Positions 1 to 7,387 of a DNA stretch of 34,738 bases are shown piece after piece. A model generated the notes under the pieces. That model saw nothing but the letters and a program-made list of their open reading frames with translations, was not told the origin of the DNA and made no database searches. A program made the translations under genes and the position numbers. The stretch's first letter is position 1. Every line of letters begins with the position of its first letter. The DNA lies in the IMG/VR virus record IMGVR_UViG_2585427766_000001; one strand, written 5' to 3'. This DNA is from a virus (Duplodnaviria; Heunggongvirae; Uroviricota; Caudoviricetes).

Positions 1-42
1 TTAAGGGTTGTGGTATTACGCCTGATATGATTTAACGTGCCG

Positions 43-1155
43 ATGAATTACTCTCACGATAACTGGTCAGCAATTCTGGCCCATATTGGTAAGCCCGAAG
101 AACTGGATACTTCGGCACGTAATGCCGGGGCTCTAACCCGCCGCCGCGAAATTCGTGATGCTGCAACTCTGCTACGTCTGGGGCTGGCTTACGGCCCCGG
201 GGGGATGTCATTACGTGAAGTCACTGCATGGGCTCAGCTCCATGACGTTGCAACATTATCTGACGTGGCTCTCCTGAAGCGGCTGCGGAATGCCGCCGAC
301 TGGTTTGGCATACTTGCCGCACAAACACTTGCTGTACGCGCCGCAGTTACGGGTTGTACAAGCGGAAAGAGATTGCGTCTTGTCGATGGAACAGCAATCA
401 GTGCGCCCGGGGGCGGCAGCGCTGAATGGCGACTACATATGGGATATGATCCTCATACCTGTCAGTTCACTGATTTTGAGCTAACCGACAGCAGAGACGC
501 TGAACGGCTGGACCGATTTGCGCAAACGGCAGACGAGATACGCATTGCTGACCGGGGATTCGGTTCGCGTCCCGAATGTATCCGCTCACTTGCTTTTGGA
601 GAAGCTGATTATATCGTCCGGGTTCACTGGCGAGGATTGCGCTGGTTAACTGCAGAAGGAATGCGCTTTGACATGATGGGTTTTCTGCGCGGGCTGGATT
701 GCGGTAAGAACGGTGAAACCACTGTAATGATAGGCAATTCAGGTAATAAAAAAGCCGGAGCTCCCTTTCCGGCACGTCTCATTGCCGTATCACTTCCTCC
801 CGAAAAAGCATTAATCAGTAAAACCCGACTGCTCAGCGAGAATCGTCGAAAAGGACGAGTAGTTCAGGCGGAAACGCTGGAAGCAGCGGGCCATGTGCTA
901 TTGCTAACATCATTACCGGAAGATGAATATTCAGCAGAGCAAGTGGCTGATTGTTACCGTCTGCGATGGCAAATTGAACTGGCTTTTAAGCGGCTCAAAA
1001 GTTTGCTGCACCTGGATGCTTTGCGTGCAAAGGAACCTGAACTCGCGAAAGCGTGGATATTTGCTAATCTACTCGCCGCATTTTTAATTGACGACATAAT
1101 CCAGCCATCGCTGGATTTCCCCCCCAGAAGTGCCGGATCCGAAAAGAAGAACTAA
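43..1155 (+). CDS. insL: IS186 transposase (DDE, IS4 family)
   Basis: 370-aa product from ATG at 43 (the track ORF begins at an upstream GTG at 37). The sequence MNYSHDNWSAILAHIGKPEEL...YRLRWQIELAFKRLK matches my recollection of E. coli InsL; YRxRWxIE is the IS4-family C-terminal signature. Confidence 0.85.
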   Translation: MNYSHDNWSAILAHIGKPEELDTSARNAGALTRRREIRDAATLLRLGLAYGPGGMSLREVTAWAQLHDVATLSDVALLKRLRNAADWFGILAAQTLAVRAAVTGCTSGKRLRLVDGTAISAPGGGSAEWRLHMGYDPHTCQFTDFELTDSRDAERLDRFAQTADEIRIADRGFGSRPECIRSLAFGEADYIVRVHWRGLRWLTAEGMRFDMMGFLRGLDCGKNGETTVMIGNSGNKKAGAPFPARLIAVSLPPEKALISKTRLLSENRRKGRVVQAETLEAAGHVLLLTSLPEDEYSAEQVADCYRLRWQIELAFKRLKSLLHLDALRAKEPELAKAWIFANLLAAFLIDDIIQPSLDFPPRSAGSEKKN

Positions 1156-1303
1156 CTCGTTGTGGAGAATAACAAAAATGGTCATCTGGAGCTTACAGGT
1201 GGCCATTCGTGGGACAGTATCCCTGACAGCCTACAAAACGCAATTGAAGAACGCGAGGCATCGTCTTAACGAGGTACCGAGGCGTCGCATTCTTCAGATG
1301 GTT

Positions 1304-1326
1304 CAACCCTTAAGTTAGCGCTTATG
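1304..1326. repeat. IS186 right terminal inverted repeat
   Basis: CAACCCTTAAGTTAGCGCTTATG is the reverse complement of the repeat whose inner part opens the window. Indexing was checked against the stop codons of track ORFs 1130..1318 and 1315..1896. Confidence 0.8.
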
Positions 1327-1957
1327 GGTGTACCACCCCGCCAGGTGAGCAAAATCCCGCAGGGAGCTGTGTAGCGTGTTGCCGGACGGTCGACGATCTC
1401 CAGACATCTTCCTAAATGCTATTGAGGCGCTTTCGCCACCGCTGTGGTCGCTCGCCGCTGGCGTCGGCCACCCAATACGCTCTATCTCGGATATGCGGGG
1501 CACCGACGCCCGCAGCCGGAAACGGGACAAGCCCAAAGGCGTAGTCCACTGCTTCCACGTCAGTTTGTACAAGATCGAACCAGGCATTGACTCCCGCAAC
1601 CTGTTCGCCAAATACCAGCTTAGGGCGTCGCTCGCTGATGAGGTGGAATAGTGCTGGCCATAGGTGCCGCTCGTCATCAAACCCAGCGCCTTTACCAGCC
1701 GAGCTGAAAGGCTGGCACGGGCAACTTCCTGTCCAGACTGGTTTGTTATCCGGCCATCCGGCCAGACGCAGAGCATAAGACCAGACGCCGATCCCGGCGA
1801 AGAAATGGCACTGTGTGAATCCGCGCAAGTCGTCTGGTGCGACATCTTCGATACTCCTTTCATCAACTTCACCCGGGGCGATATGACCCGCAGCAATAAG
1901 GTTACGCAGCCATTGTGCTGCGTTAGGGTCTATTTCGTTGTAATAGGCTCCCCGCAC
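1327..1957 (-). pseudogene. Phage cytosine-5 DNA methyltransferase, C-terminally truncated by IS186
   Basis: Track ORF 1412..1957 carries C5-MTase motifs in canonical order: FFAGIGV (motif I-like), GSCPCQPFSSAGK (PCQ, motif IV), FGEQV (ENV-like, motif VI), HIRDRAYWV (motif VIII). The frame stops at 1412 and IS186 begins 85 nt further on, so the target-recognition domain and motifs IX-X are absent. Confidence 0.7.
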
Positions 1958-2729: not shown

Positions 2730-4793
2730 TTAATCCTTACGGTAGTGGTACGCCTCAAAACCGCCAGCGTTCAGTGGGATATCTGGCGCCCATTCGGGGT
2801 TAGTGGAGAGAAGCGCGGAAAGCGCTTTATCGTTGAAATCTTCTGTGTCAGGTGATTCGGTGATCACCTCGTCGTGTACCGTCAGCACAATGCTGTAACC
2901 GGCATCTTCGATAAGCGGCATGTTTCCGGCCAGAACGTCGCGGGCGGCCGCCTGGGTGACGTTCTCCACCAGCTTTCCGCCGTAGGTTTTGAGTCGTTGC
3001 CATTTACGCGAATAAGAGTTAACACCCATGTAGGTGATATTCCCTTGTTCGATAACCGGAGACGGGTAGCATACAGCGCGTCCGGATGGTAGCTGTATGC
3101 GCAGCCACGCGCCATCGCGGCGGATTTTAAGATAACCGCAATACAATGTTTTTTGCGGTGTGGCGATTGCTGTGCGGACGGTGCACTCCAGTTCGTACCA
3201 GAAATCACAGGTCGCGGGATGCGCCCGGCGCCAGAGACGTTTAAGTGAGTCGCAGGCGATAAATACCCGTTCAGAAAGCCCGTAGGTCGATTTACGTTTA
3301 ACCGATTCGTCGTACCAGCTTTTCGCCTCGCGGATAACATCGCGGGGAATGTTTGGCAGTGCGGCGTTCGCCAGCCCGTCGAGATCGAGACCGTAAACCA
3401 GAGCAAAAGTGATGAAAGCCGATACACCTCCTCCATAACCCAGACCGAGTTCCATGACTTTACCGATCTGACGCATGTGTTTATCAACATCATCTGGTGC
3501 AATATCGAAAGCTTTTGCATACGCCAGTTTATATAAGTCCGGACCCGTTCCGGCGTCGTACTCTCTGAATGCATTCAGTTTCCATTCTTCTCCCGCCAGC
3601 CATGCCAGCATACGGCCTTCAATGTTCGACAAGTCACTTACCACCAGCTTTTTGCCTGTTGGCGCGATAATGCAGCCACGTAACGCTGAACTGGTTAGTT
3701 CCATGATATTGTCAAACAGCAGGTCTGCACATCCGGCTTTCAGTGCTTCGATGCCTTCGTCTATTTGTTCCTGTTTTAGTGAAGGGCGGGGAAGGTTCTG
3801 GGGCTGGAATAGCCGTCCGGCCCAACGACCGGTACGTGACGCCCCGCAGAACTGTAGCGTACCGCGTAAGCGCCCGTCGTGGCTTACGCCTTTCATCAGT
3901 GCCTTGTATTTACTGGTGCTGGTAGTACTGGCCTGCAGGCGGATAGCCAGCAGTTCTTTCACGGCAGATGGTAAATCGGGGTCGGCAATACGACGTTCCA
4001 GAGTACTGCGTTGCATGTCTGGTAGCTCCACACCGTAGGATTCAACAATGTGCTTAATCAACGCGTCTCGTTGTGTGGCTGCCTGCACTTCGCCATCAGT
4101 CATTTCCTGTGTACGCTTTGCCAGGCGCTTTTGTTCCTGGTCTACCGCGTCGATCGCAGCGCGTGCGAGTTCCACGTCCATGCAGACGCCCCGGTCATTG
4201 ATCTGCTGATCACGATGCCAGAGCGCCAGTTCTGTCCCCTGATAATTCCACTTCGGCAGACGTTTATAGACTTCGCGCATTGCCTCGATATCCAGTCCGG
4301 CGTAAGCAACAAAGCGCCGCCATTCTTCCGGGTGGGTTTTGCTGGTGGCCCGGCGCAGTTTGCTGTTTTTCGGGCGTGGCTTACAGAACAGCTGGATCAG
4401 AGCTTTACCTTCTTTGTCCTTCGCTTTGTCTTGCGGGACGCCTAGTACTTCGCAGAGTTCCCCCAGAGCCCCCGGGAGACCGTGCGCCAGCGCCTGCACC
4501 ATCGTGTCGCGCCAACGTTCGACTGGCGGTGCCAGTCGCGGCATTGCATAACGCAGGACGGTGCGGTCGAAGTGAGAGTTATGAAAATAAAGCAGGGTTT
4601 CAGGGGCTGCGATTGCTTCGTATAAGCCGTGTGGAATACCACCACCGGCAGTGATATCCCATACGTTTACTGGCCCGTCGTTGATAGCCCATGCGAACAG
4701 CATCACTTCAACGCCTTCGGCATACGCATGGGTACCGTTCGTAATAGGGATTTCGCAATAGGTTTCCAGGTCGCCCCATAGTATATTGGACAT
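2730..4793 (-). CDS. Family A DNA polymerase with N-terminal 3'-5' exonuclease domain
   Basis: 687 aa. N-terminal WGDLETY (Exo I, D-x-E); polymerase motif B-like [16 protein letters not shown]; motif C LTVHDEV. Confidence 0.85.
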
Positions 4794-5521: not shown

Positions 5522-6070
5522 TTAAATCAGTGCTTCAGCATCAGCACCTTCGCTGATATCGTCGAAATCGTCAGCGCTTGCCACTCCGCCGCCAGCGAAT
5601 GCATCGCCGTCTCGCAGGAACTGGACTCCGCCGAGTGAGGCATTAATGCGTTTACCGAAATTATTGTCCTGTGCCCAGATATCGATAACGGCGTTTACAT
5701 AGCACCCTGCATAGGGACGTCCATCAGCCTGAATAAGTGGCGAACGATCGCGATCAAGAACAGCTGGGCGCGCTTTGTTAGCAGCATTCAGGAAGAAATT
5801 GCCGGGGAAGCCTTCATACTCTGCTTTTTCATCACCATCATGCAGGCACAGATTGAGTTTTTTCTCCAGTTGGTTATAAATGGGCTCCCACTTCTCTCCC
5901 CATTTTTCCTTCGCTACCTGCTTCATAGCTTTACGGATTTCTTCCAGTTGTGGGTGTTTGGGTGACATTAAAAATACTGCGGAGAAACGTGGATCGCCTT
6001 CGCCGTTTACAGTTTTAGCTTCAAACAGAGACGGGAAGGCCAGACGAACATTGTTCAGCTTCAGTTTCAT
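5522..6070 (-). CDS. DUF2815 family ssDNA-binding-like protein
   Basis: N-terminus MKLKLNNVRLAFPSLFEAK is typical of DUF2815; acidic SSB-like C-terminal tail DDFDDISEGADAEALI. Sits beside a DUF2800 gene, its usual partner. Confidence 0.7.
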   Translation of the reverse strand: MKLKLNNVRLAFPSLFEAKTVNGEGDPRFSAVFLMSPKHPQLEEIRKAMKQVAKEKWGEKWEPIYNQLEKKLNLCLHDGDEKAEYEGFPGNFFLNAANKARPAVLDRDRSPLIQADGRPYAGCYVNAVIDIWAQDNNFGKRINASLGGVQFLRDGDAFAGGGVASADDFDDISEGADAEALI

Positions 6071-6085
6071 GGGTATTTCCTTAAA

Positions 6086-7387
6086 TCAGATGAGGTCTGC
6101 GGTTAGCGTATCGTCGGATACGTCGTCGAAATCATTTACAGGGTTGATATTGAGTGCGGGGCGTGGGTCTGACTCGGGAACGATGGTGGGTTTACCATCA
6201 GCTCGTGTTATCAGTGCCTCGACTTTTGACCAACGGCGCGGACTGGCCTTTTTGATAAGTTTTTCGGCTTTTGTGGGGCTAATAAGTTTAAAGTCGAATA
6301 CTTCTTCAGTTTTGTACCTGAACTGGTCCTTCAGAAGTGCGCGAGCTGCCTCTTCATCACTCCAGGCCCGGTTACCTTGTTTTCCTGTTACCAGTTTAAA
6401 CCCCGGTACCGGATGTCCGGCATTGAGTTCATTGTGAACCCGGTCTCGTACTGCCTTTAGCCAGGATTCAATAAAGTCGGCCTGGCTATAGATCTCCGCA
6501 AGCTGCTCAATGGTTAACAGAGGTACACGTGCGCTGGCATTGGAGATTATTTCGCTGACAGGCTTTGTCAGATCTTCAAAATCGCTGGCCGCTGTTTGTA
6601 AATGCTGCATTTTCTGGGCAGTGCAAATAGCTTTTGCTTTACAGAAGCGGCACTGTTTTTCTCCAGGTATGAAGTTTTCCAGCGGTAGTGTCTCAATGCC
6701 TTCGCATTCAGCAATATTGAGAACAAGGATCGCACTGGTTGCGGCCTCCAGTGCCCGTTCACCGAAAGACTGAAGTTCCTGTACGGTTAACGACCATTCT
6801 GAAACGTGGTTGAGCCTTGGCTGGTGAATAAATAATCTTACAGTCTCAAAGTCATACAGCATGCTGAATTGTTCGAGCGCACCCAGAGCATACAGTTGTA
6901 GTTGCTCATTTTGTTCTGCATCAATGCGGACGCCTTTGCCATATTTCAGGTCGTGGATTTGTAATTCGCTACCAGCAATGATTATGCCGTCGGCAGTTCC
7001 GAAAGATTCTTCCACACCCGTTATATGTGAGAAATCAACACGTTGTTCAACCAATAGTTCATTATTCTGTGCAAGAGTCCAGACCGTATCAACATACCGG
7101 CCAACGGCTTCGACCATTTCATCATCCACCTGTGGGCCAGATGTATCATTAGGATTTTCGCGAAGGGGGTATGAGCCGAGAAACATAGAAACATTGCATC
7201 CGGCGTAGTGTTCCGGGTAGCTTTGCCTGTTTCGTAGAACTTTTTCAGCAAGCGCGTGCGCTGCAGTGCCCTCGATTGCAAAAGTTGTTTCTTTATCCGG
7301 TTGTGTGGCCTCCAGCGCCAGACTTCCTGGGCAGCGCATCCATCGATGCGCTGATGATGGAGAAAGTTGTGCATGAACGTCTGGCAT
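6086..7387 (-). CDS. DUF2800 family PD-(D/E)XK nuclease (Cas4/RecB-like)
   Basis: N-terminal [15 protein letters not shown] signature; C-terminal Cys cluster [10 protein letters not shown]. Confidence 0.75.

Follow-up and report, generated by a model that had tools for sequence, protein, structure and literature searches.

An IS186-truncated prophage cytosine-5 methyltransferase locus that probably encodes two proteins in overlapping reading frames

Introduction

How many proteins are lost when an insertion sequence (IS) interrupts a phage DNA cytosine-5 (C5) methyltransferase gene? The question is raised by IMG/VR record IMGVR_UViG_2585427766_000001, a 34,738-nucleotide stretch assigned to the Caudoviricetes (hereafter the window), which is the entire draft contig JOQO01000045.1 of assembly GCA_000714135.1 from Escherichia coli 5-172-05_S3_C3 and which begins with a copy of IS186 abutting such a gene in a prophage. 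Taken alone, the window presents an ordinary case, in which IS186 struck a hot spot in a prophage methyltransferase gene, inactivating it, and the gene then started to decay. Intact alleles of the locus carry a second long open reading frame (ORF), nested on the same strand in the +1 frame of the methyltransferase ORF; the methyltransferase chain and the nested chain are termed alpha and beta below. Here, we show by sequence comparison that IS186 truncated the locus at a hot spot and that a nonsense mutation followed later, and we consider it likely that the locus is dual-coded and that beta acts as a subunit in trans to alpha.

Results

The truncated methyltransferase chain

Alignment to intact homologues, a check proposed in an initial annotation made from the window's sequence alone, revealed a 337-codon gene of which 127 codons are missing here. 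The intact alleles of E. coli O103:H2 12009 and enterotoxigenic E. coli (ETEC) H10407 encode 337 residues and are 99.8% identical to the window over 1404 nucleotides; the intact gene (WP_001213770, positions 5618-6631 of the reference locus L001) aligns without gaps from the GTG start to 1327, and the break coincides exactly with the IS end. The claimed truncation by IS186 was thus confirmed, with residues 1-210 retained and the last 127 of the 337 codons, including motif X, lost. The minus-strand ORF at 1412..1957 (181 residues) matched PF00145 (2e-12), and alpha matched M.HhaI chains at 7e-12, with an hhalign alignment that covers HhaI 8-174 at a probability of 97%. These alignments bear out the annotated succession of motifs I (FxGxG), IV (PCQ), VI, and VIII. 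The intact chain ends in …RVGRLRAYGNAIVAP… (motif X-like, YGNAIV), a segment that is invariant in 71 homologues, was not recovered by hhalign against M.HhaI, and is absent from the window. With the C-terminal part and its motif X missing, the methylation function is probably inactive, as had been proposed.

Between residues ~175 and 290, alpha displayed no constraint in its own frame, was predicted to be disordered by AlphaFold2, and gave neither a Pfam nor a HhaI alignment. At the other end of the chain, alpha residues 4-45 (window 1957-1820; alignment A2), which read AYYNEIDPYAAQWL…G.VDERSIEDV, resemble M.HhaI motifs II-III (VYSNEWDKYAQEVY; hhalign E=0.011), and motif I is followed almost directly by motif IV. 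Unlike in M.HhaI, the motif-II-like segment AYYNEIDPYAAQWL is located upstream of motif I rather than after it, and the N-terminal half of the S-adenosylmethionine (AdoMet) domain may therefore be permuted in alpha. The mycobacteriophage protein Che9d gp80, in contrast to the alpha of the window, displays the canonical motif order.

Two reading frames under selection

Eighty IMG/VR loci with beta were fetched, and 66 distinct viral loci, representing 21 lineages below 70% nucleotide identity, were analysed for their reading frames. An alpha ORF (with PCQ near its start and GNAx near its end) overlapped beta in at least 76 of the 80, and the offset was always +1. Across the 66 loci, the alpha frame contained no stops and the +2 frame 10-28, while stops in the +1 frame were confined to the first ≤35 and the last ≤30 alpha codons. 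Synonymous shuffling of the alpha codons gave an expectation of 3.75 +1-frame stops per locus against ~0 observed, and the mean fraction of shuffles with zero +1 stops was 0.019 per locus. The reciprocal test agreed with this: when the beta codons were shuffled synonymously, the middle segment, where only beta is selected, was expected to contain 2.9 stops per locus in the alpha frame, against none in 54 loci.

Constraint was further assigned to each frame by the entropy per codon position on a beta-guided codon alignment. Over alpha codons 1 to ~105, the alpha third position was the most variable, indicating that only alpha is selected. Over codons ~105-165, which encode motifs VI-VIII in alpha and LYKLTWK…RLRAS…GWPTP in beta, the third positions of both frames were damped, indicating constraint on both. 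In the repeat region that follows, the beta third position was the most variable, indicating that beta alone is selected while alpha forms an unconstrained yet open linker. The conserved C-terminal segment of beta, which lies over …DWLLCRDGKWRPVEPGTFPL…RVGRLR of alpha, was near-invariant at all three positions, again consistent with double constraint, and past the beta stop the alpha third position once more became the most variable. Alpha-only, beta-only, and doubly constrained segments therefore adjoin in a single locus. These findings argue strongly, at the level of sequence, for two same-strand overlapping genes rather than one.

Predicted translation start of beta

The same loci suggest that beta is translated from a start of its own. 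An ATG that is kept in 57 of the 66 loci and is formed from the alpha E-D-V codons (GAT-G) closely follows the point where the +1 frame becomes open; in loci with a stop after that ATG, a second ATG is located four codons downstream. A Shine-Dalgarno sequence (AAGGAG, AGGAG, or GGAG) lies ~8 nucleotides upstream of the beta ATG in 37 of the 66. The alpha codons that compose these signals are strongly biased: the ATG-forming Asp codon is GAT in 62/65 sequences, compared with 38% elsewhere (Fisher p ~1e-21), and the Shine-Dalgarno-forming Arg codon is AGG in 27/64 (42%), compared with 5% elsewhere (p ~6e-17), although the sequences that enter both tests are not independent. In the wider family of 18,342 beta cluster representatives, the best 150 mostly begin at the same profile position.

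Composition of beta and its possible relation to motif IX

In the intact allele, the +1 frame is open for ~300 codons and reads …LYKLTWKQWTTPLGLSRFRLRAS…GWPTPAASD…LAGWYTP…LAGWPTV…, followed by a conserved C-terminus. Beta is ~280 residues long in the family and overlaps ~85% of alpha on the same strand. It starts out with little constraint and then contains a hairpin that is conserved (LYKLTWKxW...RLRAS), (L)AGWPTP..D repeats in varying number, and the conserved C-terminus. The family comprises 6,983 clusters at 90% identity and 18,342 clusters at 50% identity (E≤1e-3), and both Herbaspirillum and a P2-like prophage of Klebsiella carry the same overlapping ORF pair. Homologues (P0004, P0042; alignment A1) differ by whole (L)AGWPTP…D units, with 2 to at least 6 copies and lengths of 255-394 residues, and the extra repeats of beta are merely longer linkers in alpha. 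This variation in repeat number might be related to target specificity.

In the window, the truncated beta frame continues for three codons into the IS (H-K-R) and terminates at 1317-1315 (ORF 1315..1896). The portion lost to the IS is the last 104 residues, among them another two (L)AGWPTx repeats and the C-terminus that resembles motif IX, so that the insertion truncates both alpha and the predicted beta. The initial annotation had placed the target-recognition domain and motifs IX-X outside this side of the insertion; motifs IX and X are indeed absent, but the first third of the +1-frame repeat region survives (within 1327-1845).

The sole hhalign match of beta to M.HhaI lies in the segment of beta that is conserved best and aligned beta 252-270 with HhaI 273-291 (KLHPRECARVMGYPDSY, motif IX) at a non-significant E=0.38, with identical spacing in the two proteins (L-x-P-x5-[VL]-M-G-x-P-x2-[YW]). 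A tblastn search with the last 48 residues of the beta consensus yielded 258 phage genomes, where the match was always inside an annotated methyltransferase gene. All five remote matches examined (Che9d gp80, Klebsiella phage SBP, Salmonella phage NINP13076, vB_Eco_Alma, and the T4-like Delraymugoa) were located in the +1 frame of short alpha-type coding sequences of 253-286 residues. In Che9d gp80, motifs VIII and X are only ~75 residues apart, a stretch too short to accommodate a recognition domain together with motif IX. A monomeric 'Rosetta-stone' enzyme with an in-frame beta-like region was not found among the best 150 representatives, and the five remote phage matches were all +1-nested. 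From this combination, we infer that beta may be the recognition subunit and carry motif IX.

Order of the insertion and the nonsense mutation

The window and the intact alleles differ at three positions over the aligned 1404 nucleotides. One of these creates the stop at 1412, where GAG becomes TAG in alpha and Leu becomes Phe in the beta frame. The stop that the initial annotation had reported is therefore real, but it was not caused by the IS and represents a separate, later point substitution. A contig in ENA (L091) shares the IS junction and the orientation of the element with the window and, over 4.8 kb, differs from it at 1274 and 1414 only, retaining an intact GAG. Because L091 has the junction but not the stop, the insertion came first and is shared, whereas the nonsense mutation came later and is private. 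The 211-residue IS-truncated allele was indexed in 44 blocks of the collection and the 181-residue allele on two contigs; lacking the nonsense mutation, the alpha frame would end in …GGVVHP and a stop, two codons into the IS (211 residues; P0139/P0250). The later nonsense mutation fits the decay of what would already have been a dead gene. An alternative in which 1412 is the natural end of a short protein (1412-1957) was rejected, as the intact alleles read GAG at this codon and extend to 337 residues.

The two other substitutions relative to O103:H2 and H10407 are located at 1739, where the change is silent in alpha and Arg to Gln in beta, and at 2173, within the VRR-NUC gene. The IS-bearing L091 has the two as well, which identifies them on the aligned sequences as lineage markers rather than private changes.

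The insertion site

At the junction, the uninterrupted allele reads GGTT-GGGG-TGTACCA-CCCC-GCC, that is, GGGG(N7)CCCC. The target consensus of IS186 is GGGG(N6/N7)CCCC, and such targets are rare (54 per E. coli genome) and are used repeatedly and in either orientation (PMC5009759). By sequence, the insertion site of the window is a canonical IS186 hot spot. The target, GGGGTGGTACACCCC on the coding strand (window 1327-1341, L001 5995-6015), consists of the codons of the A-G-W-Y-T-P repeat of beta (GCG GGG TGG TAC ACC CCA). Further GC-rich (L)AGWPTP repeat units of the family may likewise be IS186 targets.

A Logan contig (L087, SRR15343458; positions 3700-3739) from a ~7% divergent prophage ends in …GGTACACCC joined to ATAAGCGCTAACTTAAGGGTTG-TGGTA, with IS left-end rather than right-end sequence at the base equivalent to window 1327. 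Judged from these few bases, L087 appears to carry an independent IS186 insertion at this base, with the element facing the other way.

A simple insertion with target duplication would give the left junction …GGTTGGGGTGTACCA(C) joined to CATAAGCGC…, followed by the remaining 383 nucleotides of the gene. The exact pattern of this predicted junction gave no matches in genome_contigs and metagenome_contigs, and the IS/methyltransferase junction was found in no complete E. coli genome searched. The left junction was also not seen in the inspected short-read contigs L087 and L091, both of which end within or just past the IS end. The 24 contigs read for the IS-truncated allele were grouped as one place, whose representative L091 ends 189 nucleotides into the IS, and all blocks that hold this allele consist of contigs shorter than 50 kb. 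The caution in the initial annotation that the target duplication cannot be checked from the window thus stands, since the left junction was recovered neither in complete genomes nor in the contigs scanned. An assembly chimera at the right junction was considered and rejected, given that L091 and the window, which were assembled independently of each other, share this junction and that the 211-residue allele is present in 44 blocks.

The IS186 copy and the prophage

Window positions 1-1340 matched IS copies with 99.8% identity over 1340 nucleotides, and 2,147 complete E. coli genomes contained a match that covers at least 80% of the query. Matching copies carry the Prokaryotic Genome Annotation Pipeline (PGAP) label 'IS4-like element IS421 family transposase', and we take IS421 to be an isoform of IS186. 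The transposase matched Pfam DDE_Tnp_1 (1.6e-26) and NCBIfam transpos_IS4_1 (1.1e-38; 133 bits against a cut-off of 115). The right inverted repeat is complete, and of the left one only the last 10 nucleotides (1-10) are present, with the rest beyond the contig end. Comparison of the ends with a complete copy (L088) located the contig start 13 nucleotides into the left inverted repeat, where the assembly broke off within repeated sequence. The right end adjoins the methyltransferase gene at 1326, exactly as the initial annotation had it; the prophage flank begins at 1327, and the G at 1326 can be assigned either to the IS or to the target.

From 1327 on, the window holds a prophage replication module that encodes, besides the methyltransferase, VRR-NUC, DUF4406, an ANR regulator, PolA, a DUF2815/Enc34 single-stranded DNA-binding protein, DUF2800, and others. 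This part is 99.8% identical to prophages of E. coli O103:H2 12009 and ETEC H10407 that lie beside yfhL/shoB. In the H10407 prophage (L002), the methyltransferase locus is intact, but two other genes count as pseudogenes in the annotation, that of the SNF2 helicase with an internal stop and that of PolA with a frameshift; the PolA of the window (2730-4793) is intact, unlike that of H10407. The features of the locus are collected in Table 1.

Table 1. Positions of the features discussed, in window coordinates unless another locus is named
Feature	Position	Strand	Remark
IS186/IS421 copy (IS4 family)	1..1326	+	99.8% identity to annotated IS421-family copies; first 13 nucleotides (CATAAGCGCTAAC) missing
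IS186 transposase gene, 370 residues	43..1155	+	ORF list, gene call; GTG start at 37 also possible
Right 23-bp terminal inverted repeat, CAACCCTTAAGTTAGCGCTTATG	1304..1326	+	Reverse complement of the left end in L088
Retained part of the IS186 target GGGG(TGTACCA)CCCC	1327..1339		Junction compared with intact L001, which reads GGTTGGGGTGTACCACCCCGCC
Alpha remnant, codons 1-210 of 337	1327..1957	-	GTG start at 1957
Alpha motifs	I ~1804-1787; PCQ 1720-1712; GEQV 1609-1598; HIRDR 1495-1481	-	
Beta remnant (predicted), codons 1-173 of 277	1327..1845	-	+1 frame of alpha; ATG 1845-1843
Shine-Dalgarno AAGGAG for beta (predicted)	1854..1859	-	8 nucleotides upstream of the ATG; alpha codons GAA-AGG-AGT (E-R-S)
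Premature TAG (alpha E182*)	1412..1414	-	Substitution at 1414: A in the window, C in intact alleles and L091
H10407 pseudogenes, SNF2 helicase and PolA	L002 3181-4575 and 7404-9478		

Discussion

Our analysis indicates the following course for this locus. IS186 inserted into the GGGG(N7)CCCC site of the methyltransferase of a yfhL-integrated, PolA-encoding E. coli prophage, and the nonsense mutation at codon 182 followed later in the lineage of this strain. In the intact locus, alpha would supply motifs I-VIII and X, whereas beta would supply a small DNA-recognition domain and motif IX in trans. The active enzyme would be an alpha/beta heteromer of the M.EcoHK31I type, in which the variable region of alpha is a mere tether. 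The prophage enzyme would then be dead twice, with an alpha that lacks motif X and a beta that lacks its last 104 residues, including the motif-IX-like segment.

Several observations weigh against this two-subunit proposal. The motif-IX match of beta is statistically weak, and the C-terminus of alpha matches the start of HhaI motif IX equally weakly (E=0.28). Beta has no Pfam or NCBIfam match, also when 85 members were searched at E≤10, its profile matched none of the PDB sequences, and a Foldseek search of its model against the PDB returned nothing below E=0.7. AlphaFold2 predictions with the family alignments were poor, with a predicted local distance difference test (pLDDT) of 55.7 for beta and 49.0 for alpha, each modelled alone; these models were used solely for the disordered alpha linker and for a confident helix-hairpin in beta. 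By entropy, the first ~40-70 residues of beta display no protein-level constraint of their own, and both the translation of beta and its requirement for methylation are predictions from sequence. Regarding the insertion, the proposed orientation in L087 hinges on 5 nucleotides past the inverted repeat in a short-read contig, and since the left junction, the duplication, and the remainder of the gene are unseen, an IS-mediated deletion or rearrangement may have occurred on that side.

These weaknesses must be set against three other explanations. Were the enzyme an ordinary monomeric methyltransferase cut by IS186, the +1 ORF would be a non-functional by-product of GC-rich codon usage and alpha conservation. 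RefSeq indeed annotates alpha only, the N-terminal part of beta varies as if alpha alone were selected, and the domain libraries hold no counterpart of beta. We nevertheless regard this explanation as very improbable: the +1 frame is open in 66/66 loci while the +2 frame is riddled with 10-28 stops, shuffles that preserve both the alpha protein and its codon usage predict the 3.75 stops per locus given above, and biased alpha codons maintain a Shine-Dalgarno sequence and an ATG. Moreover, the variable position in the middle of the gene is the beta third position, as expected if beta and not alpha is selected there, and the beta repeats are gained and lost as whole units. A further explanation is a beta that is real but unrelated to methylation, for instance an anti-defence, DNA-binding, or regulatory protein overprinted on a self-sufficient alpha. 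This is unlikely in our judgement, even though the motif-IX similarity is not significant, alpha itself contains a weakly IX-like stretch, and beta alone is predicted to be largely disordered. In the 80/80 viral loci and the 5/5 remote phage matches, beta did not occur without an alpha gene (one with both PCQ and GNAx in at least 76 of the 80), and in alpha nothing between motif VIII and the C-terminus is under selection, which leaves it no target-recognition domain; the ~75 residues between motifs VIII and X in Che9d gp80 point the same way, and the sole characterised nested case, that of M.EcoHK31I, is a methyltransferase subunit.

The order of the conserved segments on the DNA (I-VIII, the repeats with the IX-like segment, and X) is that of a monomeric enzyme, which would also be expected of a single polypeptide made by programmed frameshifting, with alpha encoding motifs I-VIII, the +1 frame the recognition region and motif IX, and a return to the alpha frame for motif X. 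Fusions of this kind exist in the databases, such as P0018 (…APHIRDR joined to RIGWPTP…), but they are rare and joined at differing positions (P0015, P0017, P0018, and, in the reverse order, P0014). Beta is open, with a conserved Shine-Dalgarno sequence and ATG, from ~125 codons upstream of the supposed shift site, alpha remains open across the ~117 codons in which selection acts on beta alone, and the same nucleotides encode the motif-IX-like segment of beta and the conserved C-terminal segment of alpha, so that one chain cannot hold both. A frameshift-made single chain was accordingly rejected on its variable fusion points and on the separate beta start far upstream, although no systematic search for slippery sites was made, and we consider it quite improbable. 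The chimeras themselves (P0014, P0015, P0017, P0018, and P0136, from E. coli and Enterobacter) switch frame at differing points, one of them twice, and have the appearance of indel mutants or erroneous sequences of this locus; some bear the name 'DNA (cytosine-5-)-methyltransferase'.

Returning to the two-subunit reading, its extension to the whole family is a bolder claim, which we favour by a modest degree. A large class of phage and prophage C5 methyltransferases (at least 18,000 clusters at 50% identity) would be obligate two-subunit enzymes encoded by one DNA read in two frames over ~280 codons, with beta providing the recognition domain and motif IX and the repeat number tuning specificity. 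The proposed class includes epsilon15, N15, BcepC6B, the K1G group, Vequintavirinae phages, a T4-like Krischvirus, and mycobacteriophage Che9d. Current annotation rarely reflects such an arrangement. In epsilon15, BcepC6B, and RefSeq E. coli prophages, alpha alone is annotated under the beta match, Prodigal-type collections often hold only a nameless beta, and PHROGs contains separate 'DNA methyltransferase' families for each frame. Phage K1G (L098, GU196277) annotates both, as ORF31 'C-specific methylase' (573-1397) and ORF30 'Mte8-like protein' (661-1353), and is the only record seen with both overlapping ORFs annotated. Neither the origin and meaning of the name 'Mte8' nor a functional account was found in the literature searched, and beyond the M.EcoHK31I precedent and the K1G label that literature yielded no description of the nested gene, an absence that does not prove novelty.

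Thousands of phage 'DNA cytosine methyltransferase' genes appear to be two genes, and lesions such as this IS insertion would therefore remove two proteins. Should beta be the recognition subunit, attempts to predict the specificity of orphan methyltransferases, or to clone and express them, would fail unless both frames are kept, and the interpretation of phage methylomes and anti-restriction would fail likewise. The locus offers a clean and testable natural example of long dual coding and, if the proposal is true, few of the long same-strand overlaps known between genes of bacterial viruses would be as widespread.

Comparison with known systems

As an insertion event, the case resembles the IS186 hot spots in fimA, menC, and the lon promoter, which share the GGGG(N6/N7)CCCC target and repeated independent insertion in either orientation (PMC5009759), whereas the site here is located inside a prophage gene. 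As an enzyme, alpha shares with the monomeric M.HhaI motifs I, IV, VI, and VIII, the catalytic PCQ, and a motif-X-like YGNAI end. Unlike M.HhaI, it has neither an in-frame target-recognition domain nor motif IX, and its motif VI reads GEQV rather than ENV. M.AquI is a naturally split two-subunit C5 methyltransferase encoded by consecutive genes, with motifs IX and X on its beta chain. The proposed enzyme would similarly assemble the C5 fold from two polypeptides split in the variable region, but one of its genes lies within the other in a different frame, and alpha keeps motif X.

The closest precedent is M.EcoHK31I, of which M.EaeI is an isoschizomer. Its beta chain carries motif IX and is read from a different frame within the alpha gene, and activity depends on both chains (PMC2836561). 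Judged by that published description, the likeness lies in a second ORF situated wholly inside the methyltransferase ORF and in another frame; in the present family, this ORF is conserved in relatives. The two systems differ in how the recognition function would be divided: alpha of M.EcoHK31I keeps the target-recognition domain and its beta chain is small (~61 residues), whereas beta in the present family is ~280 residues long and, with its repeats and hairpin, accounts for all of the sequence under selection between motifs VIII and X.

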